Assembly (NCBI GenBank): GCA_011526585.1
Contig: WYBB01000133.1
Coordinates: 15-64,014 of the forward strand
Source of the DNA: Deltaproteobacteria bacterium
GTDB taxonomy: Bacteria > Myxococcota_A > UBA9042 > PHBI01
Direction: 5' to 3'
DNA: 64,000 nt
The translations under genes and the position numbers were made by a program. The notes under the pieces are model-generated. The model did no database searches. It had not been told where the DNA came from and was given only the letters and a program-made list of their open reading frames with translations. Below are positions 5,787 to 51,095 of this stretch, piece after piece. Each line of letters opens with the position of its first letter. Position 1 is the first letter of the stretch.

Positions 5787-5787
5787 G

Positions 5788-6786
<999 letters not shown>

Positions 6787-34412: not shown

Positions 34413-37138
34413 CGCGCCGCCGCCTGCTCGCGCCCGAGGTCGTGCAGACCTCGGCGATGGACTGCGGCCCCGCCGCGCTCAAGAGCCTGCTCGCCGGCCA
34501 CGGCATCGACGTCTCCTACGGCCGCCTGCGCGAGGCCTGCCAGACCGACGTCGACGGCACCAGCATCGACGTGCTCGAAGCGGTCGCCGGCCAGCTCGGC
34601 CTCGACGCCGAGCAGGTCCTCGTCCCCGTCGACCACGTGCTCCTCCCCGAGGCCAAGGCCCTCCCTGCCATCGCCGTCATCGTGCACCCCGACGGCCTCA
34701 CCCACTTCGTCGTCATCTGGGCCCGCCGCGGCCGCTGGGTCCAGGTCATGGACCCGGCCATCGGGCGCCGCTGGATGCGCATCGACGACTTCCTCCAGAC
34801 CCTCTATCGCCACACCATGGCCGTCCCCGAGGCCGCCTGGCGCGAGTGGGCCGCCGGCGACGAAGCCCGCGCCTCCTTCACCGCCCGCCTCGCCCGCCTC
34901 GGCCTCGGCGCCGCCGCCATCGACGACCACCTCGCCCGCGCCCAGGCCGACCCCGGCTGGCGCTCGCTCGGCGCCCTCGACGCTGCCTCGCGCTACCTCG
35001 AGCGCATGCTCGCCGCCGGCGCCATCCGCCGCGGCACCGAGGCCCGCGCCGCCCTCACCCGCCTCCTCGACGCCCCCTCGCCGGCCGCCCTCGAAGACCG
35101 CATCCCCGCCGCCTGGTGGACCGTGCGCGCCGCCCCGCCCGACCCCGACGACGGCTCCGCCCAGGTCCAGGTCACCGGCGCCGTGCTCGTCTCGGCGCGC
35201 GGCGTGCGCTCCGCCGCCGACCGCGCCGCCGCGCGCGACGCCCTCCCGCGCGAGCTCGCCGCCGCCCTCGCCGAGCCCCGCGAGCGCCCCTTCGTCGCCA
35301 TCGCCAACGCGCTCGCCGCCGACGGCTGGCTCGCGCCCGCCATGCTCGCGCTCACCGTCACGATCGCCGCCCTGCTCACCGTGCTCGAGGGCCTCCTCTT
35401 CCGCGGCCTCGTCGACGCCGATCGCATCCTCACCTCCCCGGAGGAGGTCTGGGGCGGCTGGGCCCTCGCCATCGCGCTCGTCGTCGCCCTCGCCACCCTC
35501 GAATGGCAGAACGCCCGCGTCTCCCGCCGCATCGGCCGCCACCTGGAGACCCGCTTCCGCGCCGCATTCCACGCCAAGATCCCGCGCCTGCCCGACCGCT
35601 ACTTCCAGAGCCGCCCCATCTCCGACATGGCCGAGCGCGGCCACATGCTCCACGTCATCCGCAGCGTGCCCGCGCTCGGCGCCCTGCTCGTGCAGTCCGC
35701 CGCCGGCCTCGCCGCCACCGTCGTCGGCGTCGTCTGGCTCGACCCCGCCTCGGCGGTCATCGTCATCCCCGGCGCCCTCCTCGCCCTGCTCATCCCGATC
35801 GTCGCCCACCCCGCCCTCGCCGAGCGCGACCTCCGCCGCCGCACCTACGCCGGCACCCTCTTCCGCCTCACCCTCGACGCGCTCCTCGGCCTCTCCGCCG
35901 TGCGCACCCACACCGCCGAGCGCGCCATCCTGCGCGAGCACGAAGGCCTCCTCGCCGACTGGCTGCGCGCCGGCGAGTCCGCCCAGCGCGTCGCCGTCCA
36001 GGTCGAGGTCGCCCAGTCCGCGCTCGGCGCCGCCCTCGCCGTCACCCTCGTGCTCGGCCACCTCGACCGCGAAGGCGCCACCGGCACGGCGCTGCTCCTC
36101 ACCTGGTGGGGCCTCCAGGTCCCGAGCTTCGCCCAGACGCTCGCCCTCACCGCGCGCCAGTACCCGCTCCTGCGCAACGCCCTCCTGCGCGTGCTCGAGC
36201 CCCTCGGCGCCCCGACCGACGACGACGCGCCCACGCCCGCCGCGCCCACCGCGCCCTCCAAAGAGAAATTGTCCACACCGCCCGCCACCACGCAAGCCCC
36301 CGTCGCCCCGATCGCCGTCACCCTCGAAGGGGTCAGCGTCGTCGCCGGCGGCCACACCATCCTCGCGTCGATCGACCTCACGCTCGCCCCCGGCGAGCAC
36401 GTCGCCGTCGTCGGCCCCTCCGGCGCCGGCAAGTCCAGCCTCGTCGGCCTCCTCCTCGGTTGGCACCGCCCCGCCGCCGGCCGCGTGCTCGTCGACGGCC
36501 ACCCGCTCGACCCCCGCACCCTCGCGGCCCTGCGCCGGCGCATCGCCTGGGTCGATCCCGAGGTGCAGCTCTGGAACCGCACCCTCCTCGACAACCTCCG
36601 CTACGGCGCCCCCGACGTGCCGCTCGCCGGCGCCGCCTCCCAGCTCCCCGCGGTCATGGCCTCCGCCGACCTCGCCGGCGTCGTCGAGGCCTTGCCCGAC
36701 GGCCTGCAGACCCGCCTCGGCGAAGGCGGCCTCTTCCTCTCCGGCGGCCAGGGCCAGCGCGTGCGCCTCGCCCGCGGCGAGCTCCGCCCCGACGTCGGCC
36801 TCGTCATCCTCGACGAGGCCCTGCGCGGCCTCGACCGCGACCAGCGCCACGACCTCCTCGCGCGCGCCCGCCGGCACTGGCACTCCGCGACCCTCATCTG
36901 CATCACCCACGACGTCGCCGAGACGCTCACCTTCCCGCGCGTCATCGTCATCGACAAGGGCCACCTCGTCGAGGACGGCGCGCCCTCCGACCTCGTCACC
37001 CGCGACACCCTCTACAAGCACCTCATCGACACCGAGCGCCAAAACCGCGATCACCTCTGGCGAAACCCCGTCTGGCGCCGCGCCCGCGTCGCCGATGGCC
37101 AACTGCACACCGCGCCACCCGGCGAGGTCGCCCCATGA
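34409..37138 (+). CDS. ABC transporter with N-terminal C39 cysteine peptidase domain (bacteriocin-processing exporter, permease plus ATPase)
   Basis: C39 catalytic motifs: QTSAMDCGPAAL, THFVVIW and VMDPAIG. NBD motifs: GPSGAGKSS, LSGGQGQRV and LVILDEA. Confidence 0.9.
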   Translation: MTRRRLLAPEVVQTSAMDCGPAALKSLLAGHGIDVSYGRLREACQTDVDGTSIDVLEAVAGQLGLDAEQVLVPVDHVLLPEAKALPAIAVIVHPDGLTHFVVIWARRGRWVQVMDPAIGRRWMRIDDFLQTLYRHTMAVPEAAWREWAAGDEARASFTARLARLGLGAAAIDDHLARAQADPGWRSLGALDAASRYLERMLAAGAIRRGTEARAALTRLLDAPSPAALEDRIPAAWWTVRAAPPDPDDGSAQVQVTGAVLVSARGVRSAADRAAARDALPRELAAALAEPRERPFVAIANALAADGWLAPAMLALTVTIAALLTVLEGLLFRGLVDADRILTSPEEVWGGWALAIALVVALATLEWQNARVSRRIGRHLETRFRAAFHAKIPRLPDRYFQSRPISDMAERGHMLHVIRSVPALGALLVQSAAGLAATVVGVVWLDPASAVIVIPGALLALLIPIVAHPALAERDLRRRTYAGTLFRLTLDALLGLSAVRTHTAERAILREHEGLLADWLRAGESAQRVAVQVEVAQSALGAALAVTLVLGHLDREGATGTALLLTWWGLQVPSFAQTLALTARQYPLLRNALLRVLEPLGAPTDDDAPTPAAPTAPSKEKLSTPPATTQAPVAPIAVTLEGVSVVAGGHTILASIDLTLAPGEHVAVVGPSGAGKSSLVGLLLGWHRPAAGRVLVDGHPLDPRTLAALRRRIAWVDPEVQLWNRTLLDNLRYGAPDVPLAGAASQLPAVMASADLAGVVEALPDGLQTRLGEGGLFLSGGQGQRVRLARGELRPDVGLVILDEALRGLDRDQRHDLLARARRHWHSATLICITHDVAETLTFPRVIVIDKGHLVEDGAPSDLVTRDTLYKHLIDTERQNRDHLWRNPVWRRARVADGQLHTAPPGEVAP

Positions 37139-39321
37139 CCGCGCCCACGCCGCCGCCGCCAGACGCCTCGCCGCTCGCCGCCTACGCCTGGCCCAGCGCC
37201 CACGTCGCCGACGCTCTGCGCGCGCTCGCCACCGTGAGCGGCCTCGGCCTCGCCCCCGACGCCTCGCTCCGCGACGACACCCCGCACGACGAAGAGTCCC
37301 TGCGCGCGCTCGGCCTCTCGCTCGGCCTCTCCCTCGACCCGGTGCAGGCGCCCTGGCGCGGCGCGACCGCGCTCGTCTCCGGCGGCCCCATGCTCGCCCG
37401 CCTGCCGGACGGCACGGGCTTCTTCCTCCTGCTCGCCGCCCGCCGCGGCCGCGCCCGCCTGCTCACCCCCGCGCTCACCGTCGTCGACGTGCCGGCCACC
37501 CTCGTGCGCGACGCTCTGCGCGCGCCCCACGTCAGCGCCGCCCTCACCCAGGTCGACGCCGATCTCGACCTCATCGGCGTGCCCGCCCCACGCCGCGCCA
37601 AGGCCCGCACCCTCCTCCTCGACGAGCGCCTCGGCCTGCGCCCGGCCGTCGTCGCCTTCGTCGTGCGCGCCGCCGGCTCGCGCTCGATCATCTCGCACCT
37701 GCGCGAGGTCGGCCTCTTCTCCGCGCTCGGCGCGCTCCTCGCCGCGCTCGTCACCCACTACGCGCTCGGCCTGTTCGCCTGGATCTTCCTCGCCTGGGGC
37801 GCGCTCGCCGGCCGCGTCGACCCGGGCTGGCTCATCGCCTGGACCCTCGCGCTCGCCTCCCAGGTCGCGCTGCGCGGCGTGCTCCTCGACGCCACCGGCA
37901 AGCTCGCCCTGCGCGGCGGCGCCGCCGTCAAGCGCCTGCTCCTCATCGGCGCCCTGCGCGGCGATCTCGATCAGATGCGCGCGCACGGCATGGGCGGCAT
38001 CATCGGGCGCACCGTCGAGAGCGAGGCCTTCGAGCAGCTCGCCCTCAACGGCGGCATGCGCCTCGTCATCGGCACCTGGGAGCTCGTCGTGGCGCTCGTC
38101 ATCGCCTCGCAGGGCGCCGGCGGCACGCTGCTCGTCCTGCTCGGCCTGCTCGCGCTCGTCGCCGCCGCGCTCACCGGCCTGCGCTTCCTTCGCAAGAAGG
38201 ACGAGTGGACGCGCGCGCGCCTCGCCATCACCGGCGACCTCATCGAGCGCATGGTCGGCCACCGCACCCGCCTCGCCCAGGAGTCCCCGAGCACCTGGCA
38301 CAGCGGCGAGGACCAGGCCCTCTCGGACTACGTGCAGCGCTCGGCCGCGCCCGACGAGCTCGAGGCCGCCCTCACCGTCTGGCCGCGCCGCGCCTTCATG
38401 GCGCTCGGCATGCTCATCGTCGCGCTCGCCGCCGGTACCGCGCCCGATCCGCTCGGCATCGGCCTCGGCCTCGCCGGCCTGCTGCTCGGCGCGCAGGCCC
38501 TCGACGCCACCGCCGGCGGGGTCGCCGCCATCGCCGGCGCCGTCGTCGCGCGCCGCGTGATCCGCGACCTCATCGACGCCGCCCGCCGCCCCGAGCGCAT
38601 CGGCGCGATCTTCCCCGCCGCCCCCGCACCCGCACCCGCGCCCGCCGCGCCCACGACGACAACCTCCACGGCCGCGTCCTCCGTGCCCGCGACGTCCCAC
38701 ACCCCGCCCACGCCGGTGCTCACCCTGAGCCGCGTCGGCTACACCTACCCGGGCCGCGCGCGTCCCGTCCTGCGCGACGTCGATCTCGAGCTCGCCGACG
38801 GCGAGCGCCTGCTCCTCGAGGGCGGCTCCGGCAGCGGCAAGTCCACCCTCGCCGCGATCATGGCCGGCCTGCGCCTGCCGAGCGAGGGGCTCGTGCTCTT
38901 GCGCGGCCTCGACCCCGCCACCTGGGGCGAAGCCTCATGGCGTCGCCGCGCCGTCGCCTCGCCACAGTTCCACGACAACCGCGTCATCGCCGGCACCTTC
39001 GCCTTCAACCTCCTGCTCGGCCGCGGCGGCCTGCCCGAGCCGTCCGCGCTGTCCGAGGCCGAGGCGCTCTGCCGCGAGCTCGGCCTCGGCCCCCTCATCG
39101 AGCGCATGCCCGCCGGCCTCCTCCAGCAGGTCGGCGAGTCCGGCTGGCAGCTCTCGCACGGCGAGCGAAGCCGCCTCTACCTCGCGCGCGCGCTCTTGCA
39201 GAACGCCGACCTGGTGCTCCTCGACGAGAGCTTCGGCGCCCTCGACCCCGAAAACCAGGGCAAGGCGCTCGCCTGCGCGCTCTCACGCGCACGCACGCTC
39301 GTCGTCATCGCCCACCCCTGA
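37135..39321 (+). CDS. Second ABC transporter permease/ATPase with degenerate (Cys-less) peptidase-like N-domain
   Basis: ATGA overlap at 37135-37138. NBD motifs: GGSGSGKST, LSHGERSRL and LVLLDES. The N-terminal 150 aa lack a catalytic Cys. Confidence 0.9.
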   Translation: MTAPTPPPPDASPLAAYAWPSAHVADALRALATVSGLGLAPDASLRDDTPHDEESLRALGLSLGLSLDPVQAPWRGATALVSGGPMLARLPDGTGFFLLLAARRGRARLLTPALTVVDVPATLVRDALRAPHVSAALTQVDADLDLIGVPAPRRAKARTLLLDERLGLRPAVVAFVVRAAGSRSIISHLREVGLFSALGALLAALVTHYALGLFAWIFLAWGALAGRVDPGWLIAWTLALASQVALRGVLLDATGKLALRGGAAVKRLLLIGALRGDLDQMRAHGMGGIIGRTVESEAFEQLALNGGMRLVIGTWELVVALVIASQGAGGTLLVLLGLLALVAAALTGLRFLRKKDEWTRARLAITGDLIERMVGHRTRLAQESPSTWHSGEDQALSDYVQRSAAPDELEAALTVWPRRAFMALGMLIVALAAGTAPDPLGIGLGLAGLLLGAQALDATAGGVAAIAGAVVARRVIRDLIDAARRPERIGAIFPAAPAPAPAPAAPTTTTSTAASSVPATSHTPPTPVLTLSRVGYTYPGRARPVLRDVDLELADGERLLLEGGSGSGKSTLAAIMAGLRLPSEGLVLLRGLDPATWGEASWRRRAVASPQFHDNRVIAGTFAFNLLLGRGGLPEPSALSEAEALCRELGLGPLIERMPAGLLQQVGESGWQLSHGERSRLYLARALLQNADLVLLDESFGALDPENQGKALACALSRARTLVVIAHP

Positions 39322-39335
39322 ACACCGCGCTGTGG

Positions 39336-39356
39336 GGACGGCCCTCGTGGCCGCCC
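39336..39356. terminator. Copy B of the GC hairpin/REP-like element, 15 nt after the ABC operon stop
   Basis: ggacggcc-ctcgt-ggccgccc, with one stem mismatch. It shares the 19-mer cggccctcgtggccgcccg with 9409-9427. Confidence 0.4.
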
Positions 39357-39368
39357 GCGTCGCCACCC

Positions 39369-40097
39369 TCAATCGCGGTGACGCAGCTCGCCGGCGCCCT
39401 CGATCGCGATCCCTTCACGCACCACGACGAAGAACACCAGGTCCGGACCGCCCCCCGCGGCCGCGTAGCTGTGCGTGTCGCCCGCCTTCATCACCAGCGT
39501 CTCGCCGGGACGCACCACCGCCCCGCCCGACTCGATCATCGCGCCCTCGAGGACCAGCGTCGTCTCCTCGCCGAGGTGCGTGTGCACCGGGAACGCCGTC
39601 CCGGCGGCGAGCCGCACGAACCCGCGGACGCACCCGGCCACCGCCGGCCCGCCCTCGACCCACAGCGCGTCGAGCCCCGGCACCAGGTCGCGCTCCCACA
39701 GGCTCGCGTCGGCCGCGCGATCGAGCAGCTCCTTGGCCTTGTCGATCGTCACGTCGATCATCGCCGCCAGCTTGTCCGCGAAGCGTGCGAGCCTCCCCGG
39801 CGCGCGCGCGCTGGCCATCACCCGCTCGCGCAAGGTTGCGCTCGGCGCCAGCGGCTCGAGCCCCTCGAGCAGCGCCGCCACCAGCAGGTCGTCGTCGAGG
39901 GCGGATCGCGCGCCCGCCTCGCGAGAGGCGAAGCCGGATCGGGCGCCCGCCTCGCGAGAGGCGGAGCTGGACCGGGCGCCCGCCTCGCGAGAGGCGGAGC
40001 TGGACCGGGCGCCCGACAGCTCGCCCAGGATCGGGTCGTGCTCGTCGTCAGGCGCGCTCTGCGCTCCTCCGCTACCCTTGCCGACTGCGCCCGTCAT
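39369..40097 (-). CDS. ChrR-like cupin-domain putative anti-sigma factor lacking the zinc motif; N-terminus is a tandem 11-aa repeat
   Basis: Cupin core GTAFPVHTHLGEETTLVLEGAM...GDTHSY. The start overlaps the stop of the ECF sigma gene (ATGA at 40094-40097). Confidence 0.75.
   Translation of the reverse strand: MTGAVGKGSGGAQSAPDDEHDPILGELSGARSSSASREAGARSSSASREAGARSGFASREAGARSALDDDLLVAALLEGLEPLAPSATLRERVMASARAPGRLARFADKLAAMIDVTIDKAKELLDRAADASLWERDLVPGLDALWVEGGPAVAGCVRGFVRLAAGTAFPVHTHLGEETTLVLEGAMIESGGAVVRPGETLVMKAGDTHSYAAAGGGPDLVFFVVVREGIAIEGAGELRHRD
39910..40017. repeat. 33-bp tandem repeat, about 3.3 copies, coding for (S)SSASREAGAR units
   Basis: gcgcccgcctcgcgagaggcgRagcYggaYcgg starts at 39910, 39943 and 39976. 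Confidence 0.85.
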
Positions 40098-40678
40098 TCG
40101 GTGGCCACCCCCAGGGCCTGTCTCAGCTTGATCATCGCCGATCTTACGCGCGACTTCACCGTTCCGATCGGAATCCCGAGCTCATCCGCGATTTCACTCG
40201 ACGAGAGCCCGTCGAAGAAGCCGAGCACGATCACCTGGCGCTGCTCGAGCGGCAGCTCCGCCAGGACGCCCCGCAGCCGTCCGGCATCGGCGCGCGCATC
40301 CATGGCACCGTCGCCGGCGAGCATGTCGGGACGCGCTCGCGCCATCGTCTCGTCGGGGTCGTCACCCAGGCTCTGTCGTCGCGCCCGCGGCGCCGCGCGC
40401 AGCCGATCCAGGCAACGCGAGCGCATGCGCAGCGCGATCCAGGTACGCACGGTCGCGCGTTTCGGATCGAAGTCACCCGCGTGCCGCCACACCTCGACCA
40501 GCACGTCGTGCACGACGTCCTCGGCCTCCTCGCGGTCGCCGAGGATCCGCACCCCGAGCGCCATCAGTAGCGGCGCGTAGCGGTCGTAGATCCGCCCGAG
40601 CGCCAGGGTGTCACCGCGCGCGACGGCGGCGATCTCCACGGCGTCGAGCGCGTGGTCGTGGGGCGGTGTTGCGGTCAT
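40094..40678 (-). CDS. ECF-type RNA polymerase sigma factor
   Basis: ATG at 40678. Region 2: YAPLLMALGVRILGDREEAEDVVHDVLVEVW. Region 4: LPLEQRQVIVLGFFDGLSSSEIADELGIPIGTVKSRV. Confidence 0.9.
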   Translation of the reverse strand: MTATPPHDHALDAVEIAAVARGDTLALGRIYDRYAPLLMALGVRILGDREEAEDVVHDVLVEVWRHAGDFDPKRATVRTWIALRMRSRCLDRLRAAPRARRQSLGDDPDETMARARPDMLAGDGAMDARADAGRLRGVLAELPLEQRQVIVLGFFDGLSSSEIADELGIPIGTVKSRVRSAMIKLRQALGVATE

Positions 40679-40927: not shown

Positions 40928-40960
40928 TTGACAGCAACCCAGGAAAACAGCATCCTGGGT
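40928..40960 (+). promoter_or_regulatory. TTGACA-N17-CATCCT promoter candidate overlapped by an 8-bp inverted repeat (acccagga...tcctgggt); likely autoregulated TA promoter/operator
   Basis: Read directly. It ends 2 nt before the antitoxin ATG at 40963, which leaves little room for an RBS, so the transcript may be leaderless or the call may be wrong. Confidence 0.3.
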
Positions 40961-40962
40961 GC

Positions 40963-41181
40963 ATGTCGACACGGCTCTCCACAGACCTGGGAGACCCCCG
41001 TCTGATGAAGCTCCTCAAGGCCGAGGCCCTCGAGCGGGACACCAGCATCAAGGACGTGCTCACGCGCGCGCTCGAGGCCTACTTCGCCGAGCGTCTCGAG
41101 GCCAAGACGATCGCGCGCATGGCCGACTCGGCCTTCGAGGAGTGGGAGGACCCCCGCGACGCGGACTACGATCGATTGTGA
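40963..41181 (+). CDS. Ribbon-helix-helix (CopG-like) antitoxin
   Basis: 72 aa. STRLSTDLGDPRLMKLLKAEALERDTSIKDVLTRALEAYF. The stop overlaps the toxin start (GTGA). Confidence 0.7.
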   Translation: MSTRLSTDLGDPRLMKLLKAEALERDTSIKDVLTRALEAYFAERLEAKTIARMADSAFEEWEDPRDADYDRL

Positions 41182-41522
41182 CCGCCGGCGACGTCATCCT
41201 CGTTCGATTCCCCTTCTCGGACATCGAGACGACCAAGAAGCGTCCCGCGCTGGTCCTGACGGAGTCGATGCGCTCGCCTCGCAACCTCCTGGTCACGGTG
41301 GCCATGATCACGAGCCAGATCGAGGCTCTGAGGCTGGAGGGGGACGTGCTGCTCGGCAACTGGCAGGAGGCTGGCTTGCTGCATCCGAGCCTCCTTCGCA
41401 TGGCCAAGGTGGCTACCGTTGATGGCGATCTCGTCGACAGGGTCATCGGCGCGCTGACGCCGAGTGACATGCGCGCGGCAAAGCTGGCCTTCCGCCGCGT
41501 CTTCGCGTCCTGGGTGCGGTGA
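41178..41522 (+). CDS. PemK/MazF-family type II toxin
   Basis: GDVILVRFPFSDIETTKKRPALVL is the typical N-terminal strand motif. 114 aa, GTG start. Confidence 0.8.
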   Translation: MTAGDVILVRFPFSDIETTKKRPALVLTESMRSPRNLLVTVAMITSQIEALRLEGDVLLGNWQEAGLLHPSLLRMAKVATVDGDLVDRVIGALTPSDMRAAKLAFRRVFASWVR

Positions 41523-42677: not shown

Positions 42678-43838
42678 ATGGACATGCACGAGCTCGACGT
42701 CATCGTGATCGGCGGCGCGACCGGCGGCGCCGCCACCGCCCTCCTCCTCGCGCGCGCCGGGGCGCGCGTGACGCTCCTCGAGAAGGTCGCCGAGCCGCGC
42801 GCCGTCGGCGCCGGGATCGCCATCGCCGACAACGGCCTCGCGGTGCTCGAGTCCCTCGGCCTGGGCCCCGCGCTCATGCGCACGGCGTGCCCGCTGTACG
42901 GGGCCGCCGTCGTCGACGCGCGCGGGCGCACGCTCTTTTCACCGCCCGAGCCGCGGCCGCGTCTGATGATGCTCCGCCGCGCCGCGCTCCAGGGCGTGCT
43001 GCTCGACGCGCTCGCGGGCGAGCCGCGCATCCGGACCCGGTTCGGCGCCGAGGTGGTCGCGACCTCGCGCGACGGCACGGTGGTCGTGGAGAGCGCCGGC
43101 CACCGCGAGGAGCTCCACGCCGAGCTCGTGGTCGGGGCGGACGGCGTGCACTCACGCGTGCGCGCCAGCGGGGACTTCGGCGCCCGCCAGCGCCCTCCCG
43201 GCATCGCCTACCTGCGCGCGCTCGTCCCGGGCGTCGAAGCCGAAAACGTCGAGGCCTGGACCTCGGCCGGCCTCTTCGGGACCTTCGACGTCGAGGGCGG
43301 CACCTACCTCTATGCCTCGGCGAGCTCGCGCGCCACGCGCGCCGCGGTCGAGGCCCGCGATCTCGTCTCGCTCAGGCGCGTCTGGCGCGACGCCTACCCC
43401 GCCTCCGAGCGCTTCCTGTCGTCGCTGTCGAGCTTCGACGAGCTGCTCGTCAACCGCGTGCTGCGCGTCGACTGCCGCCGCTGGCACGACGGCCGCGTGG
43501 TCCTCGTCGGCGACGCCGCACACGCGATGGCGCCGAACCTCGGCCAGGGCGCCAACAGCGCGCTCGTCGACGCCGCCGTGCTGCTCGACGAGCTGCGCCG
43601 GCACCCGAGCCCGCCCGAGGCGCTGGCCGCCTATGAGGCACGTCGCCGGCCGGCGGTGCGCCGCGTCGCCACCACCGCCGCGCGCCTCGGCCGCCTCGCC
43701 GAGCTCTCCAACCCGCTCTCGCGCTTCCTGCGCGACCGCGTGCTCATGCCGCTCGCGCGCCGCTTCGCGAGCCCCGCGACCAACGACACCGTGATGCAGG
43801 AGCCGCCCGCCACGCTGCTCGCCATCGGGCGGGCCTGA
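42678..43838 (+). CDS. FAD-dependent aromatic-ring monooxygenase (UbiH/salicylate hydroxylase-like)
   Basis: DVIVIGGATGGAATALLLARAG, ADGVHSRVR and GDAAHAMAPNLGQGAN. Confidence 0.9.
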   Translation: MDMHELDVIVIGGATGGAATALLLARAGARVTLLEKVAEPRAVGAGIAIADNGLAVLESLGLGPALMRTACPLYGAAVVDARGRTLFSPPEPRPRLMMLRRAALQGVLLDALAGEPRIRTRFGAEVVATSRDGTVVVESAGHREELHAELVVGADGVHSRVRASGDFGARQRPPGIAYLRALVPGVEAENVEAWTSAGLFGTFDVEGGTYLYASASSRATRAAVEARDLVSLRRVWRDAYPASERFLSSLSSFDELLVNRVLRVDCRRWHDGRVVLVGDAAHAMAPNLGQGANSALVDAAVLLDELRRHPSPPEALAAYEARRRPAVRRVATTAARLGRLAELSNPLSRFLRDRVLMPLARRFASPATNDTVMQEPPATLLAIGRA

Positions 43839-43876: not shown

Positions 43877-46800
43877 TCACGGCACCTGCTCGTCGTCCGC
43901 ATCCACGGCCCGGACTTCATCGGGACGAAGGACCTCGAGCAGCGTCGCGATGGCGGTCGTCTCGGCGCTCGCCGGGAAGCTCGGGCGCTCCGGGTTGTCC
44001 GATCGCAGGATCCACCCGGGACCCGTGCGCACGATGCGCTTGAGCTGCCAGCCGAAGCCGTCGACGGGATCGGGCACCTGCACGAGCGCGACCTTGCCCT
44101 CGAGCGCTCCGAGGCCGACGCCGCGCGCCCAGCGCAGGGCGACCCAGTCGCCATCGTGGATCGGACGCAGGCCTCCCTGCATCGAGTCGCCCGACGCGCG
44201 CACGAGGAAGACGTCATCCTCTCCGGCCCACGCGACCTCACGCGTCAGCTCGACCCAGGTGGCCTCGATGGAGCTCGGCTCATCGGGCCGGTCGATCGCC
44301 CCGGCCGCCGCGCGGAGCGTCGCATAGGCGCGCACCCGGCGGCTCGCGAGATCGATCACGACCGCGCCCCCGGCACCGGCGACCGCGCCGACCGGCGCGG
44401 CCCACCACATCCCGGATGAGCGGACGAAACGAACGGCACCCTTCGATCCCGTCCCCCGTTGCCCGGCCGTCGGGCCGAACCAGCGCCGCAACAAGTCGGG
44501 GAGCGCGTTCTTCCGTCGCCCCAGTCCCGCCGGCGCCGCCTCCGCGCAGCCGGTCGCGGTGAAGCGGAAGTCCCACGGCACGCTCTCGATCCGCACCGTC
44601 ACGGCGCCGACGCCCGGACCCACCCCCGGCTCGAAGCCCAGAACCGGGTCGCGGCCCGACCAGCCGAGCCGTGCCTCGAAGGCGACCTCACCCGCATCCG
44701 GCGTCGGGGCGATCCTTCGCCGATATTGCGCCAGGCGATAGTCCACCAGCTCGCGCGTGAGCTCGGCCAGCGTCGCCTCGAGGCCTACGGGCGCCGCGAA
44801 GCGCGGCACGAGGTGCTGCTCCGCGGCACGCGCCTCGAGCGCGAAGTGAGCGCCCGCAGTCCACGCCGCGATCGGGTTCTTGCGCCAGTACCGCCGCCAC
44901 ACCTCGGGGTCGGGCCGCCGCGGGTCCGGCAGCTCCTTGATGCCCTGAAGGTCGCGCATCAGCTCGGGCGATCGGGCGATCACCCGGTGACTCGCCTCGG
45001 CCAGCGCGCCGAGCTCCATGCCCGTGCCCAGCGCCTCGTGCTCGAGCAGGACCTCGATGACGATGGCCTTGAAACACTTGCTCATCGCGCTGCTCTCGAG
45101 CTCGCGCAGCCACGGCCCGCACGCCGCGACCACCGCGACCTCGTCGGGGCTCAGGTCGCCCTCGTCGCGCACGAGGTCGAACCAGCTCCGCCCGCTCGGA
45201 CGGAGCGCCTGCGGCGAGAGCCCGAGCCGGAAGAGCTCCCCGAGCCGGGGTCGCTCGTCGCGCAGCGCCCGCAGCTCGCGGTAGGTCCGCTCGAGCTCGG
45301 TCCGACCGGCGGGCAGGAGGCGGCGAAGGAGATCGACGGCCTCGAGCTCGATCTCGATCGAGCAGCCGGGCGGCAAGGCCGGCGCCTCGCCGTCGAGGAA
45401 GGCCCGGAGCGCGTCGCGATCCCGCGCACCGAGCGAGACGAGGCGGCCGATCCGATCGAGGAAGACCTTGTGGTTGCCGACGAAGTCCAAGACGGTCACG
45501 CGCTCTTTTCCGGGCGCGACGCGCAGACCCCGGCCGAGCTGCTGCAGGAACACGATGGGGGACTCGGTCGGGCGCAACATCGCCACCCGATCGACCGCCG
45601 GCACGTCGACGCCCTCGTTGAACAGGTCGACCGTCGCGAGCGCGTCGAGCTCACCGACGCGCAGGCGCGCCAACGCCAGATCCCGCTCGGCCGAGCCCGG
45701 GCCACTGTGAACCGCCTCGATCCGCACGCCGCGCGCGGCGAGCCACCGCGTCGCGAAGGTCGCGTGTCGTATCGACGCGCAGAACACCAGCGTGCGAGAG
45801 CCCGGGTGCGCTTGCCACGCCTCCCAGAGCCGCTCCATGCGCGCCTCGGTCTCGACCGCCAGCGCCAGCGCCTCGGGATCGAAGCGGCGGTTGCGCCACG
45901 GGATCGGCGCAAAGTCGGTCGTGTCGCGCAGCCCGAAATAGGCAAACGGCGCGAGCAGGCCCTCGCCGATCCCCCGGCCCAGATCGGCCCGATAGACCAG
46001 ATGGTCGTCGAAGAGCCCGAGCAGGTCGGCCTCGTCCTGGCGCTCGGGCGTGGCCGTGAGCCCCAGTACGAAGCCCGTCTCCACGCGGTCGAGCACCCGC
46101 CGATAGGTCGGCGCCGTGGCGTGGTGCACCTCGTCGACGATGACGTAGTCCCAGCGCGCCGCGGCGAGCCGCGCGAGCCAGGGGTCGCGCGAGACCTTCT
46201 GCACCGAGGCCAGCACGAGGTCCGCATCCAGGCCACCGGAGGCGCCGGCGCAGAAGTCGATCCGCGCCTCGGGCCACCTCGCCGTGAGCGCGCCACCCAG
46301 GGTGTGGGCGGCCTGGTCGAGCAGCTCGCCGCGGTGCGCGAGGAAGAGCACGCGCGGCGCCCGCTCGCGATCACCGAAGGCGGCGATCAGATCGAACGCC
46401 GCCAGCCAGGTCTTGCCGAGCCCGGTCGCGAGCACCAGGAGCGCCCGACCGCGACCCTCGGCGCGGGCTCGTGCCAGCGCGGCCAGCCCCTCCTGCTGCA
46501 CCGCGTGCGGCGTCGGCATCGCAAACGGTGGCTCGACCTCCGCCCGCGCGAGCTCATCCGCCGCGCGGGTCCCGGCCTCTTCCGGTCGTCGGCGCCTCGC
46601 GTAGGCCGCGATCCACTCGGCGTCGAGCGCGTGGGCTTCGAGCCACAGCGCCTCGAAGCCCGAGACCAGCCGGCCCCAGCCTTCGCGATCCTCGTCGCGA
46701 TCGATGCGCAGGTTCCACTCGATGCCGTGGTTCAGCGCCGACTCGGAGATGTTCGACGAGCCGACGAAGGCGACACCCCGCTCCGGCCACTCGAAACGCC

Positions 46801-47476
46801 ACGCCTTCGGGTGGAAGGCGCGGCGGCCTCGCGTCTCGAACACGCGGGCGGCCAGGTTCGGGCCGACCCAGCCGAGCAGCGTCATGAGCGCTTCGGGCGC
46901 GGTGATCTCGAGGTAGTCGCCGGTGAGCACCCGGATGGTGGCGCCGCGCTCGCGCGCGTCCAGGAGCTCGCGTTGCAGCTGCAGGAGCCCGGAGCGCTGG
47001 ATGAACGCCGCGATGATGTCGATGCGTGTGGCCGTCCCGAAGAGCGTGCCCAGGTGCGCCTTGAAAGGGTCGTCGCCGCCCCTGGCGAGCCGTGTCATCG
47101 GGTCGCGCTTGTAGTTGCCCTTCCACGGGATGACGTGGCGCACGCCGCCGCGCGGGTCGTCCATGTCGCCGCGATAGCGCGGGATGAGGTGCACGTGCAG
47201 GTGGGCGACGGTCTGACCGCCGGCCTCGCCGACGTTGATCCCGATGTTGTAGCCGTCGGGTCGATACTCGCGCTCGAGCCGCGCCTTGACGACGGCGACG
47301 AGGTCCATGAGCGCGCGCTGCTCTTCGACGCTCGCCTCGAACCACGTCGCCACGAGCCGCTTCGGGATGATCAGCGCGTGGCCCGGACTCACCGGGAAGC
47401 CGTCGAAGATCGCGAAGGCCAGCGCGTTGCTCGCGATCCACTCGGACTCGGAGCGCTCGAGGAACGGTGAGCTCAC
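43877..47476 (-). CDS. 1199-aa fusion: HIT domain, PLD-family (HKD) nuclease, SF2 DEAD/DEAH-type helicase, DUF3427-like region, S24 LexA-like peptidase
   Basis: HIT: HLHVHLIP. PLD: FHPKAWRF...GSSNIS. Helicase: ATGLGKT, IVDEVHH, LGLTATP and QQLGRGLR. S24: AAAG...ASGDSMQ...WQLKRI. Confidence 0.9.
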   Translation of the reverse strand: MSSPFLERSESEWIASNALAFAIFDGFPVSPGHALIIPKRLVATWFEASVEEQRALMDLVAVVKARLEREYRPDGYNIGINVGEAGGQTVAHLHVHLIPRYRGDMDDPRGGVRHVIPWKGNYKRDPMTRLARGGDDPFKAHLGTLFGTATRIDIIAAFIQRSGLLQLQRELLDARERGATIRVLTGDYLEITAPEALMTLLGWVGPNLAARVFETRGRRAFHPKAWRFEWPERGVAFVGSSNISESALNHGIEWNLRIDRDEDREGWGRLVSGFEALWLEAHALDAEWIAAYARRRRPEEAGTRAADELARAEVEPPFAMPTPHAVQQEGLAALARARAEGRGRALLVLATGLGKTWLAAFDLIAAFGDRERAPRVLFLAHRGELLDQAAHTLGGALTARWPEARIDFCAGASGGLDADLVLASVQKVSRDPWLARLAAARWDYVIVDEVHHATAPTYRRVLDRVETGFVLGLTATPERQDEADLLGLFDDHLVYRADLGRGIGEGLLAPFAYFGLRDTTDFAPIPWRNRRFDPEALALAVETEARMERLWEAWQAHPGSRTLVFCASIRHATFATRWLAARGVRIEAVHSGPGSAERDLALARLRVGELDALATVDLFNEGVDVPAVDRVAMLRPTESPIVFLQQLGRGLRVAPGKERVTVLDFVGNHKVFLDRIGRLVSLGARDRDALRAFLDGEAPALPPGCSIEIELEAVDLLRRLLPAGRTELERTYRELRALRDERPRLGELFRLGLSPQALRPSGRSWFDLVRDEGDLSPDEVAVVAACGPWLRELESSAMSKCFKAIVIEVLLEHEALGTGMELGALAEASHRVIARSPELMRDLQGIKELPDPRRPDPEVWRRYWRKNPIAAWTAGAHFALEARAAEQHLVPRFAAPVGLEATLAELTRELVDYRLAQYRRRIAPTPDAGEVAFEARLGWSGRDPVLGFEPGVGPGVGAVTVRIESVPWDFRFTATGCAEAAPAGLGRRKNALPDLLRRWFGPTAGQRGTGSKGAVRFVRSSGMWWAAPVGAVAGAGGAVVIDLASRRVRAYATLRAAAGAIDRPDEPSSIEATWVELTREVAWAGEDDVFLVRASGDSMQGGLRPIHDGDWVALRWARGVGLGALEGKVALVQVPDPVDGFGWQLKRIVRTGPGWILRSDNPERPSFPASAETTAIATLLEVLRPDEVRAVDADDEQVP

Positions 47477-47537
47477 CTGGTGGATCTATCACCGCGCCCC
47501 AGGGCGGTCACCCGGGGGAGCCCCTCGCCGCGTCCGC

Positions 47538-49013
47538 CTACAGGAGCCCGAAGAGCGGCAGCCACACGGTGACGAGCAGCACGATCGCGGCGAAGCCGAC
47601 CAGGTGCAGCAGGATCCCGCGCGTGGCGACCTCGCGCGGGCGATAGAAGCCGAGCGACCAGCCGACGGCGGTGGCGGGCGTCGACATCGGGAACATGAAC
47701 GCGAAGTTCGACGGCAGGACGATCATCATCGCGGCGGCGCGCGGATCGATCCCCATGCTCTGCGAAAAGGCCAGGGTCGGCGGCAGCAGCATCGCCACCA
47801 CCGCGGCGTTGCTCATGAACTCGGTCATCAGCGCGGCGGCGAAGCCGATGCTGATCAGGAGCACCGTCGGCGAGGTGAAGCCCTCGTCGAAGAGCGCGCC
47901 GGTGAGCCACCGCGCCGCGCCCGACTCGGTCATCGCCGCCGACAGGCAGAGCGCGCCGCCGTACATCAGGATGATGCCCCAGTGCACGTTGTCCTCGATC
48001 TCCTGCCAGCTCACGAGGCGCAGGACGAAGAGCAGGGTCGTCGCCAGGATGGCGATGACGTCGAGGCCGAGCTCGCGCCCGTAGGCGGCCCATGAGAAGA
48101 CCGTGAGCAGCATGATCACGCCGACGAGCTGCTCGCGCACGGTGGTCTTGCCCATCTCCTCGAGCTTCGACCTGAGGAGCCGCCGCGCCGAGTCGGTGCT
48201 CGGGACCTCGGAACGATAGCGCCCGAGCAGCACGAGCCCGACGACGAAGAGCGTCACCACCAGCGGCGCCGAGTAGCCCATGTACTCGACGAAGCCGATC
48301 GTCGAGCGGCCGTCGGTCGCCTCCTCGAGCAGACCGATCGTCAGCGGCGCGCGGTTGCCGCCGAGGATGGTCAGCGTGCCGCCGATGATGCAGCCCCACG
48401 CCAGCGCGAAGGAGAGCTGGCGGCCGAGCTGCGAGCGCGCCTTGTCGAGCTCGAGCGCGCGGGTGATGTCGGTGACGATCGGCAGCAGCATCACCGCGAC
48501 GGCGTGCTCGCTCATCAGCGTCGAGGCGACCGCCGAGAGCGTGTAGACCGCGACGACCAGGCGCCAGGGGGTCTTGCCGAAGCGCTCGACCACCAGCGTG
48601 GCGAGGCGCTTGGAGAGCCCGCTCTTGATCAGCGCCGCCGAGAGCATGAGCGATCCGATCAAGAAGAAGACGACCTTCGAGCCGAAGTGGCGGTAGGTCT
48701 CCTCGGGCGGCAGGATCCCCGCGAGCGGCACGAGCGCCATCGCGCACAGGCTGGTGATCGGCGGCGGCAGGAGCGCGGTCGCCCACAGGATCGCGCACAG
48801 GCCGAAGATGCAGATCGTGCGCCAGCCGGCGACCGCGAGGCCCTCGGGCGGCTCGAGGTTCAGCGCGAGGACGAGCAGCGCGAAGAGCGCGACCAGCGTG
48901 AGCTGACGCCACAGGCGTGAGGCCAGGACCTGCGACAGCGGTCGCCGATCGATCTCGAAGCGGCGCAGGTGCAGCGGCCGCTCGCTCGAGTCGTGGTCCT
49001 CGCCTTTGGACAT
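47538..49013 (-). CDS. DASS/SLC13-type anion:sodium symporter (ArsB/NhaD permease superfamily)
   Basis: About 12 predicted hydrophobic segments. Repeated (S/T)NxA(V/A) hairpin-like motifs are present, for example FMSNAAVVAMLLP. Confidence 0.8.
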   Translation of the reverse strand: MSKGEDHDSSERPLHLRRFEIDRRPLSQVLASRLWRQLTLVALFALLVLALNLEPPEGLAVAGWRTICIFGLCAILWATALLPPPITSLCAMALVPLAGILPPEETYRHFGSKVVFFLIGSLMLSAALIKSGLSKRLATLVVERFGKTPWRLVVAVYTLSAVASTLMSEHAVAVMLLPIVTDITRALELDKARSQLGRQLSFALAWGCIIGGTLTILGGNRAPLTIGLLEEATDGRSTIGFVEYMGYSAPLVVTLFVVGLVLLGRYRSEVPSTDSARRLLRSKLEEMGKTTVREQLVGVIMLLTVFSWAAYGRELGLDVIAILATTLLFVLRLVSWQEIEDNVHWGIILMYGGALCLSAAMTESGAARWLTGALFDEGFTSPTVLLISIGFAAALMTEFMSNAAVVAMLLPPTLAFSQSMGIDPRAAAMMIVLPSNFAFMFPMSTPATAVGWSLGFYRPREVATRGILLHLVGFAAIVLLVTVWLPLFGLL

Positions 49014-49049
49014 CCGCGCTGCTCTCGGGATCTCGGGGGAGGAGGTCGC

Positions 49050-50342
49050 TCAGGGATCGGTGAGGCTCACGTCGCGCACGCGCAGCGCGCGCCTGAGATC
49101 GGAGAGGCGCGCCGAGGTCTTGCGCCCGAGGCGCGAGCCGGCGAAGGCGTCGGCCATGCGCGACCAGACACCGCGGCGCTCGGTCTCGAAGAAGCGGCTC
49201 TCGATCGGGGTCGTCACGGTGGCGATGTCGCGCACGAGGCCGAGCGGCAGGCGGCGCTTGCGCGCGCGACGCCACAGCTCGGCGTAGAGCTCGGAGAGCT
49301 CGGCGAGCGTCGGCTCGAAGCGCTCGACGTCCGGATCGGCGCGCAGGTCGCGGCCCTTGAACGGGCGATAGACCGGCAGGACCGGCACCACGCCGGCGTC
49401 GATCAGCGTGCGCACGCCGTCGAGCGTCGAGGCGAGCGGCTCGAGCCCGACGATGAGGTGACAGGCGATCGCGCCCGCCGGGAAGACGGTGGTGGCGTAG
49501 CCGAGCGCGTCGAGGAAGCGCTGGCGGCCGACGATGCGCGCCGGGCCCTTGCAGATCCGCTCGAAGCGCGCGGGGTCGAAGATCTCGAGGTTGTACGAGA
49601 CGAGATCGGCGCCCATGCCGTAGGTGCGATCGATCCAGCCGTCGGTCGCCGGCGGCAGCGCGTCGACGGCGACGAGCACGTCGAAGTGCTTCTTGAGCGC
49701 GTGCACGTACGGCTCGAGCAGTCGCACCCCGCCGTCTTCGCCGCCGATGTGGCCGATCGAGAGGTGCACCATGTCGACCCGGTGCTCGGCGCGCGCGACG
49801 CGCACCGCCTCGACGATGTCGGCGACCGGCACGAGGTCGTGCAGGCCGTGCTCGCCGACGCCGCAGAAGCGGCAGCGATCGTCGGAGGCGAGGAACTGGC
49901 AGCGGTTGGTCGGCGAGAGCGCGAGGTAGGGGCCGTGCACGGTGCCGATCCGGCCGTAGGGCACGCCGCCCGAGGTCGCGCCTGCGAAGAACGCCGACGG
50001 CGCGCGCGCCTTGACCGGCACCGCGAGGTCGGGCGCCTCGCGCGTGGTGATCGTCAGCGCGGCGGCGTCGCCCTCGAGCGCGTAGGGTGAGCTCTGCACG
50101 AGGCGCGGGTGCACCGGCACCGCGGCCCAGACCTGGCCCGGCAGGACGAGGTCGAGGTCCCAGGCGTTGCCGAAGACGGCGTGCGAGGCGAACTTGCCGT
50201 CGCGCGCCTCGGGGCGCAACCGCTCGAGCGTGGCCGGCGGAACGCGCAGACCCCGCCGCATCAGCTCGAGCTTCAGCAGGCCGGGGTTGTGCAGGATCTC
50301 GGCGGCATCCACCATGAGCGGCACGCTAGCCAAAGGTGACAT
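49050..50342 (-). CDS. Radical-SAM-like protein with non-canonical CX8CX2C cluster motif
   Basis: NRCQFLASDDRCRFCG, followed by IGHIGGEDGG and TIM-barrel-like alternating strands. An alternative ATG lies at 50315. Confidence 0.6.
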   Translation of the reverse strand: MSPLASVPLMVDAAEILHNPGLLKLELMRRGLRVPPATLERLRPEARDGKFASHAVFGNAWDLDLVLPGQVWAAVPVHPRLVQSSPYALEGDAAALTITTREAPDLAVPVKARAPSAFFAGATSGGVPYGRIGTVHGPYLALSPTNRCQFLASDDRCRFCGVGEHGLHDLVPVADIVEAVRVARAEHRVDMVHLSIGHIGGEDGGVRLLEPYVHALKKHFDVLVAVDALPPATDGWIDRTYGMGADLVSYNLEIFDPARFERICKGPARIVGRQRFLDALGYATTVFPAGAIACHLIVGLEPLASTLDGVRTLIDAGVVPVLPVYRPFKGRDLRADPDVERFEPTLAELSELYAELWRRARKRRLPLGLVRDIATVTTPIESRFFETERRGVWSRMADAFAGSRLGRKTSARLSDLRRALRVRDVSLTDP

Positions 50343-50358
50343 TGTTAGTCAACAATGT
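50339..50358. promoter_or_regulatory. AT-rich 8-bp perfect palindrome acattgtt-agtc-aacaatgt overlapping the start codon of 49050..50342
   Basis: Read directly. It is conspicuous in a sequence of about 70% GC. It could be an operator or the peroxiredoxin terminator. Confidence 0.35.
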
Positions 50359-50435
50359 CCTGAATCTTTCTTGCGCCCCCGAGGAAGGGGGCGAAGCGGC
50401 GCCAAGGATGCGCGCCGCGGCCGTCGAGACATCGG

Positions 50436-51095
50436 TCAGCTCGGCTGCTTGACCACCCGCAGATAGGGGCGAAGCGTCTTCCAGCCCTCGGGGAAGCGCG
50501 CCTTGGCCGCCTCGTCCGAGACCGAGGGCGGGATGATGACGTCGTCGCCCGGCCGCCAGTTGACCGGCGTCGCCACGGTGTGGCGCACGGTGAGCTGGCA
50601 CGAGTCGAGCAGGCGCAGCACCTCGTCGAAGTTGCGGCCCGAGCTCATCGGGTAGGTCAGCATCGCCTTGACCTTCTTGTCGGGCCCGATGACGAAGACC
50701 GAGCGCACGGTCTGGTTGTCGACGGCGGTGCGGCCGGTCGAGCTCTCGCCGTCGTCCTCGGGCAGCATGTCGTAGGCCTTGGCGACCTTCAGATCGGTGT
50801 CGCCGATGATCGGGTAGTTCACCGCGGCGCCCTGCGTCTCCTCGATGTCCTTGGCCCAGCGCGCGTGATCGTCGACCGGGTCGACCGACAGGCCGATCAC
50901 CTTGGTGTTGCGCTTGTCGAACTCCGGCTTGAGCTTGGCGAGGTAGCCGAGCTCGGTCGTGCACACCGGCGTGAAGTCCTTCGGGTGCGAGAACAGGATC
51001 GCCCAGCCATCGCCGATCCAGTCGTGGAACTTGATCGAGCCTTCGGTGGTCTGGGCCTCGAAGTCGGGGGCGACGGAGTTGATGCGAAGCGACAT
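50436..51095 (-). CDS. 1-Cys peroxiredoxin (Prx6 type)
   Basis: FSHPKDFTPVCTTEL active-site motif. Length and C-terminal domain are typical of Prx6. Confidence 0.95.
   Translation of the reverse strand: MSLRINSVAPDFEAQTTEGSIKFHDWIGDGWAILFSHPKDFTPVCTTELGYLAKLKPEFDKRNTKVIGLSVDPVDDHARWAKDIEETQGAAVNYPIIGDTDLKVAKAYDMLPEDDGESSTGRTAVDNQTVRSVFVIGPDKKVKAMLTYPMSSGRNFDEVLRLLDSCQLTVRHTVATPVNWRPGDDVIIPPSVSDEAAKARFPEGWKTLRPYLRVVKQPS

Follow-up and report, generated by a model that had tools for sequence, protein, structure and literature searches.

We analysed a stretch of 64,000 nt (hereafter the window) from contig WYBB01000133.1 of assembly GCA_011526585.1, which stems from a Deltaproteobacteria bacterium of the Myxococcota_A lineage PHBI01, and focus here on a single gene on its minus strand (43877-47476) that encodes a protein of 1199 amino acids (aa). 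From the amino terminus onwards, the protein combines a histidine-triad (HIT) domain, a phospholipase D (PLD)-family nuclease, an SF2 helicase-like ATPase, a helical coupler, a beta-rich domain and an S24 peptidase module of the LexA type. The arrangement, a chassis resembling the type IV restriction enzyme SauUSI that carries a LexA-type, predicted self-cleaving domain in place of the reader for modified DNA, and a HIT head in addition, was not found described: there is no account of HIT- or S24-bearing SauUSI relatives in the searchable literature on SauUSI/DUF3427, S24/LexA-like and HIT domains, defence or phosphorothioate. We propose, and give the proposal about an even chance of being correct, that the protein is an ATP-driven restriction-type nuclease that is switched by autoproteolysis of its S24 module, possibly with stimulation by RecA. 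Its DNA cutting would probably be tied to a DNA-damage signal.

The open reading frame (ORF), which starts with GTG and ends in the stop codon at 43877-43879, encodes a genuine single polypeptide. Third codon positions are 91% G+C in the frame of the gene, the overall G+C content is 72.7% for the gene and 72.6% for the window, and the long ORFs opposite to the gene or in its other frames are the usual shadows of high-GC DNA. Database searches returned more than 100 full-length homologues (50-81% identity) with the same HIT/helicase/S24 domain list. The architecture is present in finished chromosomes, including complete Sorangium and Anaeromyxobacter genomes, and a second, independent assembly of the source sample contains the identical gene. 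An earlier, sequence-only reading of this DNA had recognised HIT, PLD, SF2 and S24 modules in one uninterrupted polypeptide, and this holds according to Pfam, an alignment with SauUSI, a fold match and the homologues; the motifs that it quoted lie where it had placed them. Residue conservation was scored on an alignment of 120 homologues in the same range of identities (50-81%), to which all statements on invariance below refer. All features of the gene lie, like the gene itself, on the minus strand.

The nuclease domain (aa 151-262, 46691-47026) reaches 24.4 bits against the Pfam family PLDc_2, which is under the cut-off of 27, but the assignment stands because the domain aligns with the nuclease domain of SauUSI. 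It contains a single HKD motif (H222, K224 and G239-S-S-N242; 46751-46813), whose residues are (nearly) invariant. It is followed by the SF2 helicase-like ATPase (aa 323-672, 45461-46510), which is supported by the SauUSI alignment and by matches to ResIII (aa 323-479, 95.6 bits) and Helicase_C (aa 548-653, 55 bits), and has motifs I (ATGLGKT, with K355 as the Walker A lysine), II (DEVHH), III (LTATP) and VI (QQLGRGLR). The best solved structure for the 1199-aa protein is 7clg, SauUSI of Staphylococcus aureus (phmmer E 7.5e-73, query residues 155-694), and a profile of the family matches SauUSI with E 2.5e-125 over residues 15-673, a stretch that begins within the nuclease domain and ends within the first coupler subdomain. 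The PADLOC model mREase_IV (PDLC03659) is matched with E 5e-84 over its positions 40-626 of 945, the reader part of the model being unmatched. As judged by these alignments, the PLD-SF2 core is homologous to SauUSI along some 650 residues, from the N-terminal PLD nuclease with its one HKD motif through the SF2 DExH motor into the beginning of the coupler, and the suggestion that the PLD-helicase core is of a defence type is borne out by the SauUSI match, along with the partial mREase_IV match. Both proteins are single-polypeptide enzymes. SauUSI is a homodimer in which the single-HKD nuclease domains pair and an SF2 motor translocates DNA in an ATP-dependent manner; its SRA-fold reader (the Pfam DUF3427 core) recognises 5-methylcytosine and 5-hydroxymethylcytosine and turns on the ATPase (PMC7913695; bioRxiv 10.1101/2025.10.16.682607).

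It is this reader that the 1199-aa protein does without. An AlphaFold model of aa 690-1199 (pLDDT 88) consists of a helical region, a beta-rich domain, a strand entering the cleavage site and an S24-like beta domain. The helical region corresponds to a coupler (aa 711-923, 44708-45346) that is common to DUF3427-type SauUSI-like proteins, whereas the conserved beta-rich domain (aa 932-1030, 44387-44683; motif LPDLLRxWFGPxAG) has no detectable counterpart in SauUSI. About 350 residues in this part of the protein had been taken for a DUF3427-like region. No DUF3427 match was obtained with Pfam in the 1199-aa protein, its isolated C-terminal half at E<=1 included, and no SRA match in a fold search of the aa 690-1199 model against the PDB. 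The region instead resembles the coupler and beta part of relatives, which in them comes before the DUF3427 core, and to this extent the claim was right: aa 711-1030 align with residues 1-309 of the DUF3427 protein P0175 (31% identity, E 3e-32, BLASTP), the DUF3427 domain of which follows at residues 311-452, directly after the aligned part. Plasmid genes annotated as DUF3427 match the helical coupler part alone (tblastn). The beta domain is kept in relatives with any C-terminal module or none. In the AlphaFold model, coupler and beta domain together gave no significant fold match in the PDB; a similarity to the WYL fold of BrxR (E 0.4) was rejected as noise.

These alignments indicate that, in the 1199-aa protein, the parts ahead of the reader (coupler and beta domain) are retained, the DUF3427 core is absent and S24 begins at the point where a reader would be expected; in P0175 and in a further relative, P0265, the DUF3427 core occupies the position held by S24 in the 1199-aa protein. 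The protein thus differs from SauUSI in having an S24 autopeptidase where SauUSI has its SRA/DUF3427 target-recognition domain, and in its extra N-terminal HIT domain, a module of the nucleotide hydrolase/transferase type. Since it has no SRA/DUF3427 reader, specificity for modified DNA is not expected, and we refrain from classing it with the type IV modification-dependent enzymes because the defining reader domain was not found.

The S24 catalytic core (aa 1075-1190, 43907-44254) was delimited with Pfam and Foldseek. Peptidase_S24 is matched at aa 1075-1171 with 24.3 bits, just over the cut-off of 23.3, and in a Foldseek search with the AlphaFold model the sole significant PDB matches of the C-terminal beta domain are to lambda cI and LexA, in each case to the C-terminal domain (E down to 7e-6, target TM-scores 0.6-0.82), the top match, 2hnf, being a "hyper-cleavable" lambda cI fragment that includes the cleavage-site region. 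In the 1199-aa protein, the corresponding region, RVRAYATLRAAAGA (aa 1047-1060, 44297-44338), aligns with VAA/G of LexA and contains the predicted scissile bond Ala1058-Gly1059 (codons 44300-44305); the residues L-R-A-A-A1058-G1059 are invariant or nearly so. Ser1098 in GDSM (44183-44185) and Lys1146 in LKR (44039-44041) are each present in 119 of the 120 homologues, the remaining one having a gap. When aligned with E. coli LexA, VAA/G falls on AAA/G, GMSM on GDSM and VKR on LKR, and Ser1098, Lys1146 and A1058-G1059 correspond to LexA Ser119, Lys156 and A84-G85.

The assignment of S24 is solid, because the fold matches and the conserved residues of dyad and cleavage site point in the same direction, and the earlier description of the tail as an S24 peptidase of the LexA/UmuD type is upheld. 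With LexA, UmuD and lambda cI the module shares the S24 fold, the Ser-Lys dyad, the spacing of the motifs and an Ala-Gly site, which here lies some 40 residues before the Ser within a conserved sequence xRAAAG. The difference lies in the partner, which is a 1050-aa enzyme rather than a helix-turn-helix (HTH) domain or the short arm of UmuD, so that the predicted cleavage would control an enzyme directly and not transcription. The N-terminal 1050 residues hold the HIT, PLD, SF2, coupler and beta parts and no winged-helix or HTH DNA-binding domain. Judged from sequence and modelled structure, the protein is therefore not a LexA-type repressor, while everything expected of a self-cleaving S24 module in sequence and structure is in place. 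Because the Ser, the Lys and the Ala-Gly pair are invariant or nearly so, it can be argued that the module really cleaves. The earlier idea of S24 as a switch is plausible, and is strengthened by this conservation.

The 1199-aa protein is one form of a modular family. An exhaustive hidden Markov model (HMM) search of 50%-identity clusters with aa 690-1199 found 686 clusters at E<=1e-3 and 102 at E<=1e-30. According to Pfam and local HMM scans, P0265 is a HIT-PLD-SF2-body-DUF3427 protein without S24, P0262 a PLD-SF2-body-S24-DUF3427 protein in which S24 stands before a bona fide DUF3427 domain (E 2e-25), P0233 a PLD-SF2-body protein without S24 that has a different C-terminal domain of 230 aa, and P0209 a HIT-PLD-SF2-body protein with nothing thereafter, the gene of which is complete and does not run off its contig; the long forms of Myxococcota (~1400 aa) have HIT at one end and S24 plus the 230-aa domain at the other. 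All twelve combinations of HIT (with or without), S24 (with or without) and C-terminal module (DUF3427, extension or none) occur among 171 PLD-SF2-body proteins, of which some short entries are possibly fragments. HIT and S24 are combined with the extension in 117 of the 171, and form the reader-less class to which the 1199-aa protein belongs in 16. The HIT head and the S24 tail had been presented as additions not described before; in the literature searched, no description was found either, but they are not one-off additions, being recurrent modules that are freely combined.

In most Myxococcota homologues, S24 is followed by the 230-aa extension, which has two subdomains (e.g., P0060 aa 1188-1418) and is absent from the 1199-aa protein. 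For the model of the extension (pLDDT 94), the PDB offers nothing beyond weak similarities to ScoMcrA (SBD and SRA domains), with E-values of 0.02-0.07 that are below significance, and these give a hint of a ScoMcrA likeness. The extension was considered as a DUF3427 domain, which was rejected for want of similarity to DUF3427 proteins by HMM. The homologues come mostly from Myxococcota (Sorangium, Myxococcus xanthus, Pyxidicoccus, Archangium, Polyangium, Anaeromyxobacter), and further ones from metagenome-assembled genomes (MAGs) of Planctomycetota and Thermoanaerobaculia; loci were also found in Holophagaceae, Alphaproteobacteria and Bradymonadales MAGs. Shewanella, Enterovibrio and Idiomarina have HIT-less PLD-SF2-body-S24 proteins with 36-38% identity. 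In this gammaproteobacterial clade (C-termini of L027 and L028) and in P0262, the site is Cys-Gly (IACGHF), as in UmuD, and Arg takes the place of the catalytic Lys; the Ser-Lys dyad of these proteins may be non-canonical or inactive. In another family member (L048 6001-8551; also L049 and L050, from three independent samples), the PLD domain is broken by two frameshifts, one after GNYK and the other between FHPKSWRFEW and GVAFVGSSN. The gene has probably decayed to a pseudogene without a working nuclease.

At the amino terminus, the HIT domain (aa 10-102, 47171-47449) matches Pfam HIT with 78.5 bits, and the three His residues of its triad H92-x-H94-x-H96 (47189-47203) are invariant or nearly so, in agreement with the earlier assignment. 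The head shares the HxHxHxx motif and a full-length HIT domain match with Ap4A (diadenosine tetraphosphate) phosphorylase, HINT and FHIT proteins; its closest PDB match is the Ap4A phosphorylase Rv2613c (3wo5, E 1.5e-16), followed by archaeal and bacterial HINTs and FHIT. It differs from them in belonging to a separate clade, with SPFL at the N-terminus and a tail GDxxDPRGGVRHVIPxKGNY, and in being fused or adjacent to nucleases. In the 1199-aa protein, this clade-specific tail, GDMDDPRGGVRHVIPWKGNY, follows the HIT domain and extends to about aa 122. Stand-alone members of the clade have about 126 aa and are 62-76% identical to the head (20-sequence alignment).

The neighbours of the clade, which numbers at least 573 loci, were checked in 79 newly fetched genome loci and two stand-alone loci. 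Many of the loci with the signature encode HIT fused to PLD-SF2-body. Stand-alone HIT genes overlap an SBD(ScoMcrA)-HNH gene by 4 nt in two loci (L051 101-1452, L052 78-1429), abut such a gene in a third (L065, about 4983-6336), and are followed by a gene for a 355-420-aa protein with a C-terminal HNH domain in five more (L059, L066, L067, L073 and L086; the HNH match in L067 is weak and under the Pfam cut-off). In L053, a stand-alone HIT gene precedes a split PLD-SF2-body gene near an integrase, and in L089 and L091 HIT adjoins ribonucleotide-reductase-like genes instead. Given the PLD-SF2 fusions and the HNH neighbours, the clade is recurrently partnered with restriction-type nucleases, which belong to more than one catalytic family; the pairing of HIT with nuclease genes looks to be undescribed. 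The 1199-aa protein is thus linked to ScoMcrA-type SBD/SRA-HNH enzymes through stand-alone HITs of the same clade that are encoded immediately upstream of SBD-HNH genes, but it has no SBD, SRA or HNH domain itself. As to phages, a 126-aa HIT with about 71% identity to the head (P0339, JGI 3300059473) is encoded in a phage-like series of small ORFs (more than 30, all on one strand), which contains a Lar restriction-alleviation gene, and may be a phage-borne copy; a scan of IMG/VR gave no match for stand-alone HIT. Another highly similar 126-aa "stand-alone" HIT (P0321) was rejected, being a fragment of a frameshifted family gene.

With SauUSI and LexA as guides, we infer a working mechanism. 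Two copies of the protein would have to pair because each PLD nuclease has one HKD motif, and an active site would form where the PLD domains of the two meet. HIT domains are dimers as well. The SF2 motor would hydrolyse ATP and move along DNA, and the PLD site would cut it. Intramolecular cleavage by S24, with Ser1098 and Lys1146, would split the 1058-residue enzyme from a C-terminal piece of 141 residues, the most likely stimulus being a RecA filament on single-stranded DNA (ssDNA), formed on damaged or invading DNA. For the reader-less form, we lean towards cleavage as the activating step: the S24 tail would hold the dimer inactive and act as sensor in place of the missing reader, and its removal would activate the enzyme, presumably in defence. 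S24 is favoured as the input device because it occupies or precedes the position of the reader across the family, and because no other sensor was recognised in the 1199-aa protein. The HIT head would contribute an auxiliary activity of a kind that accompanies restriction-type nucleases generally. HIT enzymes can desulfurate nucleoside phosphorothioates, a point on which the proposal does not rely.

A number of observations weigh against this proposal. The gene does stand alone between a monooxygenase and a transporter, as the sequence-only reading had it, and its locus is not a defence island: among 10 neighbours there is no meaningful PADLOC match, the only match being to the HTH DNA-binding domain of a LuxR-type regulator. 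The G+C content of the gene equals that of its surroundings. Family genes can hold a stable chromosomal position, since Myxococcus and Pyxidicoccus share the upstream flank and Shewanella species the whole neighbourhood. No phage copies of the coupler-S24 region were found, and plasmids hold DUF3427-type coupler matches only. Upstream of family genes, we detected no SOS box of the type CTGT-N8-ACAG in 10 gammaproteobacterial loci, and the Myxococcus SOS motif was not found upstream in the window or in any of the loci. Dependence on RecA is not guaranteed. In the HIT-less gammaproteobacterial clade, Arg stands where the catalytic Lys would align, so that cleavage may not be the universal role of S24. 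Finally, complete genes of the P0209 type end after the beta domain; the body thus exists without a C-terminal module, and activation by cleavage therefore fits no better than inactivation.

Inactivation is the core of the alternative that survives best, namely that the enzyme is constitutively competent and has restriction alleviation built in. S24 self-cleavage on RecA filaments would then inactivate it by removing a dimerisation or targeting module (and in long forms the reader as well), and gapped or repaired host DNA would be protected during the SOS response. Damage-induced alleviation of type I restriction is well established. In some relatives, S24 lies between motor and reader, where cleavage would detach the latter. 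Target recognition by the reader stimulates the ATPase of SauUSI (PMC7913695), and SauUSI also cuts ssDNA gaps without a target, a hazard during repair (bioRxiv 10.1101/2022.12.11.519956). The 1199-aa protein, however, has no reader to lose, unmodified host DNA is not normally threatened by type IV enzymes, and natural forms without reader and S24 exist, so that, if these are active, the body alone would seem able to work. On balance we judge this alternative unlikely, yet leave it a substantial probability, particularly for the forms in which cleavage detaches a reader.

Somewhat less likely again is a housekeeping role in DNA repair, with HIT and PLD cleaning blocked ends (adenylated ones, or ones with protein or peptide adducts), the helicase giving access and S24 coupling the enzyme to SOS. 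S24 modules are classically linked to DNA damage, and several points listed above (stable synteny in Myxococcaceae and Shewanella, a context in the window that is not an island, a composition that matches the host, no phage or plasmid copies) would suit such a factor. The idea had been prompted by aprataxin, a HIT enzyme, and Tdp1, a PLD enzyme, and neither comparison is supported. The resemblance of the HIT head is to Ap4A phosphorylase, HINT and FHIT proteins, its 52 PDB matches at E<=1 include no aprataxin chain, and Pfam finds no zinc-finger domain in the 1199-aa protein. Tdp1 has two HKD/HKN motifs in one chain, which form a monomeric active site, unlike the single HKD motif found here in a domain that aligns with the SauUSI nuclease. 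Moreover, the homology of the core to a restriction endonuclease extends over 650 residues, DUF3427 readers, a domain class that reads modified DNA in SauUSI, are found in sister architectures, and the HIT clade of the head is also paired with restriction-type nucleases of the HNH family. Some relatives lie in defence or integrase contexts, and the spread across phyla at about 50% identity is patchy.

It is also conceivable, though improbable in our view, that S24 does not cleave at all and is a structural domain for dimerisation or for binding to RecA filaments, the conserved residues serving binding. LexA-type C-terminal domains are dimerisation modules, too, and the gammaproteobacterial clade keeps the domain in spite of its Arg at the Lys column. 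Without catalysis, however, the (near) invariance of Ser, Lys and Ala-Gly in 120 sequences is hard to explain. An artefact, in the form of a mis-assembly or read-through that joined separate HIT, helicase and repressor genes, as allowed for at the outset, is refuted and has practically no probability left, because the identical architecture recurs in more than 100 independent sequences, finished genomes included, and the identical gene in the second assembly of the same sample.

If autoproteolysis does switch the nuclease, LexA-type proteolysis would directly control an enzyme that cuts DNA. To our knowledge, such control is otherwise known for repressors and UmuD, and for type IV restriction enzymes the current view is that the sole control lies in the binding of the reader domain to its target. 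In its most specific form, the proposal would have the protein read the DNA-damage or ssDNA alarm of the cell directly: RecA-stimulated autoproteolysis would unleash or disarm it, the SOS signal would thereby act at the protein level on an immune or suicide effector made of one polypeptide, and the HIT clade would be a general, hitherto overlooked accessory of restriction nucleases; this version is tentative, and we rather doubt that it is right in all its parts. The recurrence of the HIT clade with PLD-SF2 and HNH nucleases points to a nucleotide-level step in restriction. The family is large and present in tractable organisms (Myxococcus xanthus, Sorangium, Anaeromyxobacter and Shewanella), and the matter bears on annotation, as the homologues are labelled in databases as "DEAD/DEAH box helicase family protein" only.

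In the window, a gene for a DASS/CitMHS transporter of 491 aa (47538-49013, minus strand) lies on the same strand as the gene for the 1199-aa protein, with a gap of 61 nt, and a gene for an FAD monooxygenase (42678-43838, plus strand) is convergent with it. Operon coupling with a 600-aa ORF (47473-49275, minus strand), the stop codon of which overlaps the start codon of the gene, was considered and rejected; this ORF is a shadow, because it has no Pfam match and the real gene is that of the 491-aa transporter in another frame. Farther neighbours encode AraC, a MazF-like toxin, an ECF sigma factor, a radical-SAM protein, a peroxiredoxin, LuxR and HtrA. The toxin-domain ORF (PemK/MazF-like, 40959-41522, plus strand, 51 bits) is 2.4 kb away from the gene. 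The radical-SAM gene adjoins that of the 1-Cys peroxiredoxin (49050-51095, minus strand) upstream of the transporter, without evident link to the gene for the 1199-aa protein. Two overlapping ORFs of 1894 and 1161 aa (33637-40580, plus strand), the former with a C-terminal ABC_tran match only and the latter without any match, look like high-GC shadow or merged ORFs and not like genes of such length.

No conserved neighbour was found in the HIT-bearing clade by an all-against-all comparison of ORFs from 46 loci, and for this clade the earlier statement that there is no obvious partner gene is borne out. Gene settings are ordinary in Sorangium and in a relative with 79% identity. Settings of a defence or integrase type occur in Anaeromyxobacter Fw109-5 and in a planctomycete: the Anaeromyxobacter locus has DUF1156 and DUF499 genes upstream and an HNH nuclease and an integrase downstream, and the planctomycete locus adjoins a canonical PLD-helicase-DUF3427 gene and DUF433/DUF5615 genes, which are taken to be a toxin-antitoxin pair. 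The Shewanella/Enterovibrio clade has a conserved gene for a class I S-adenosylmethionine-dependent methyltransferase of about 195 aa just upstream of the HIT-less PLD-SF2-S24 gene (L025-L031); in L027 the methyltransferase gene occupies 7369-7956, at a distance of 8 nt, and downstream of the PLD-SF2-S24 gene L027 has a convergent gene with an LPD1 domain. M. xanthus has a separate gene for a 247-aa PLDc_2 protein (L042 9242-9985) upstream of its family gene, at a distance of 16 nt, which the syntenic locus of Pyxidicoccus (L004) lacks.

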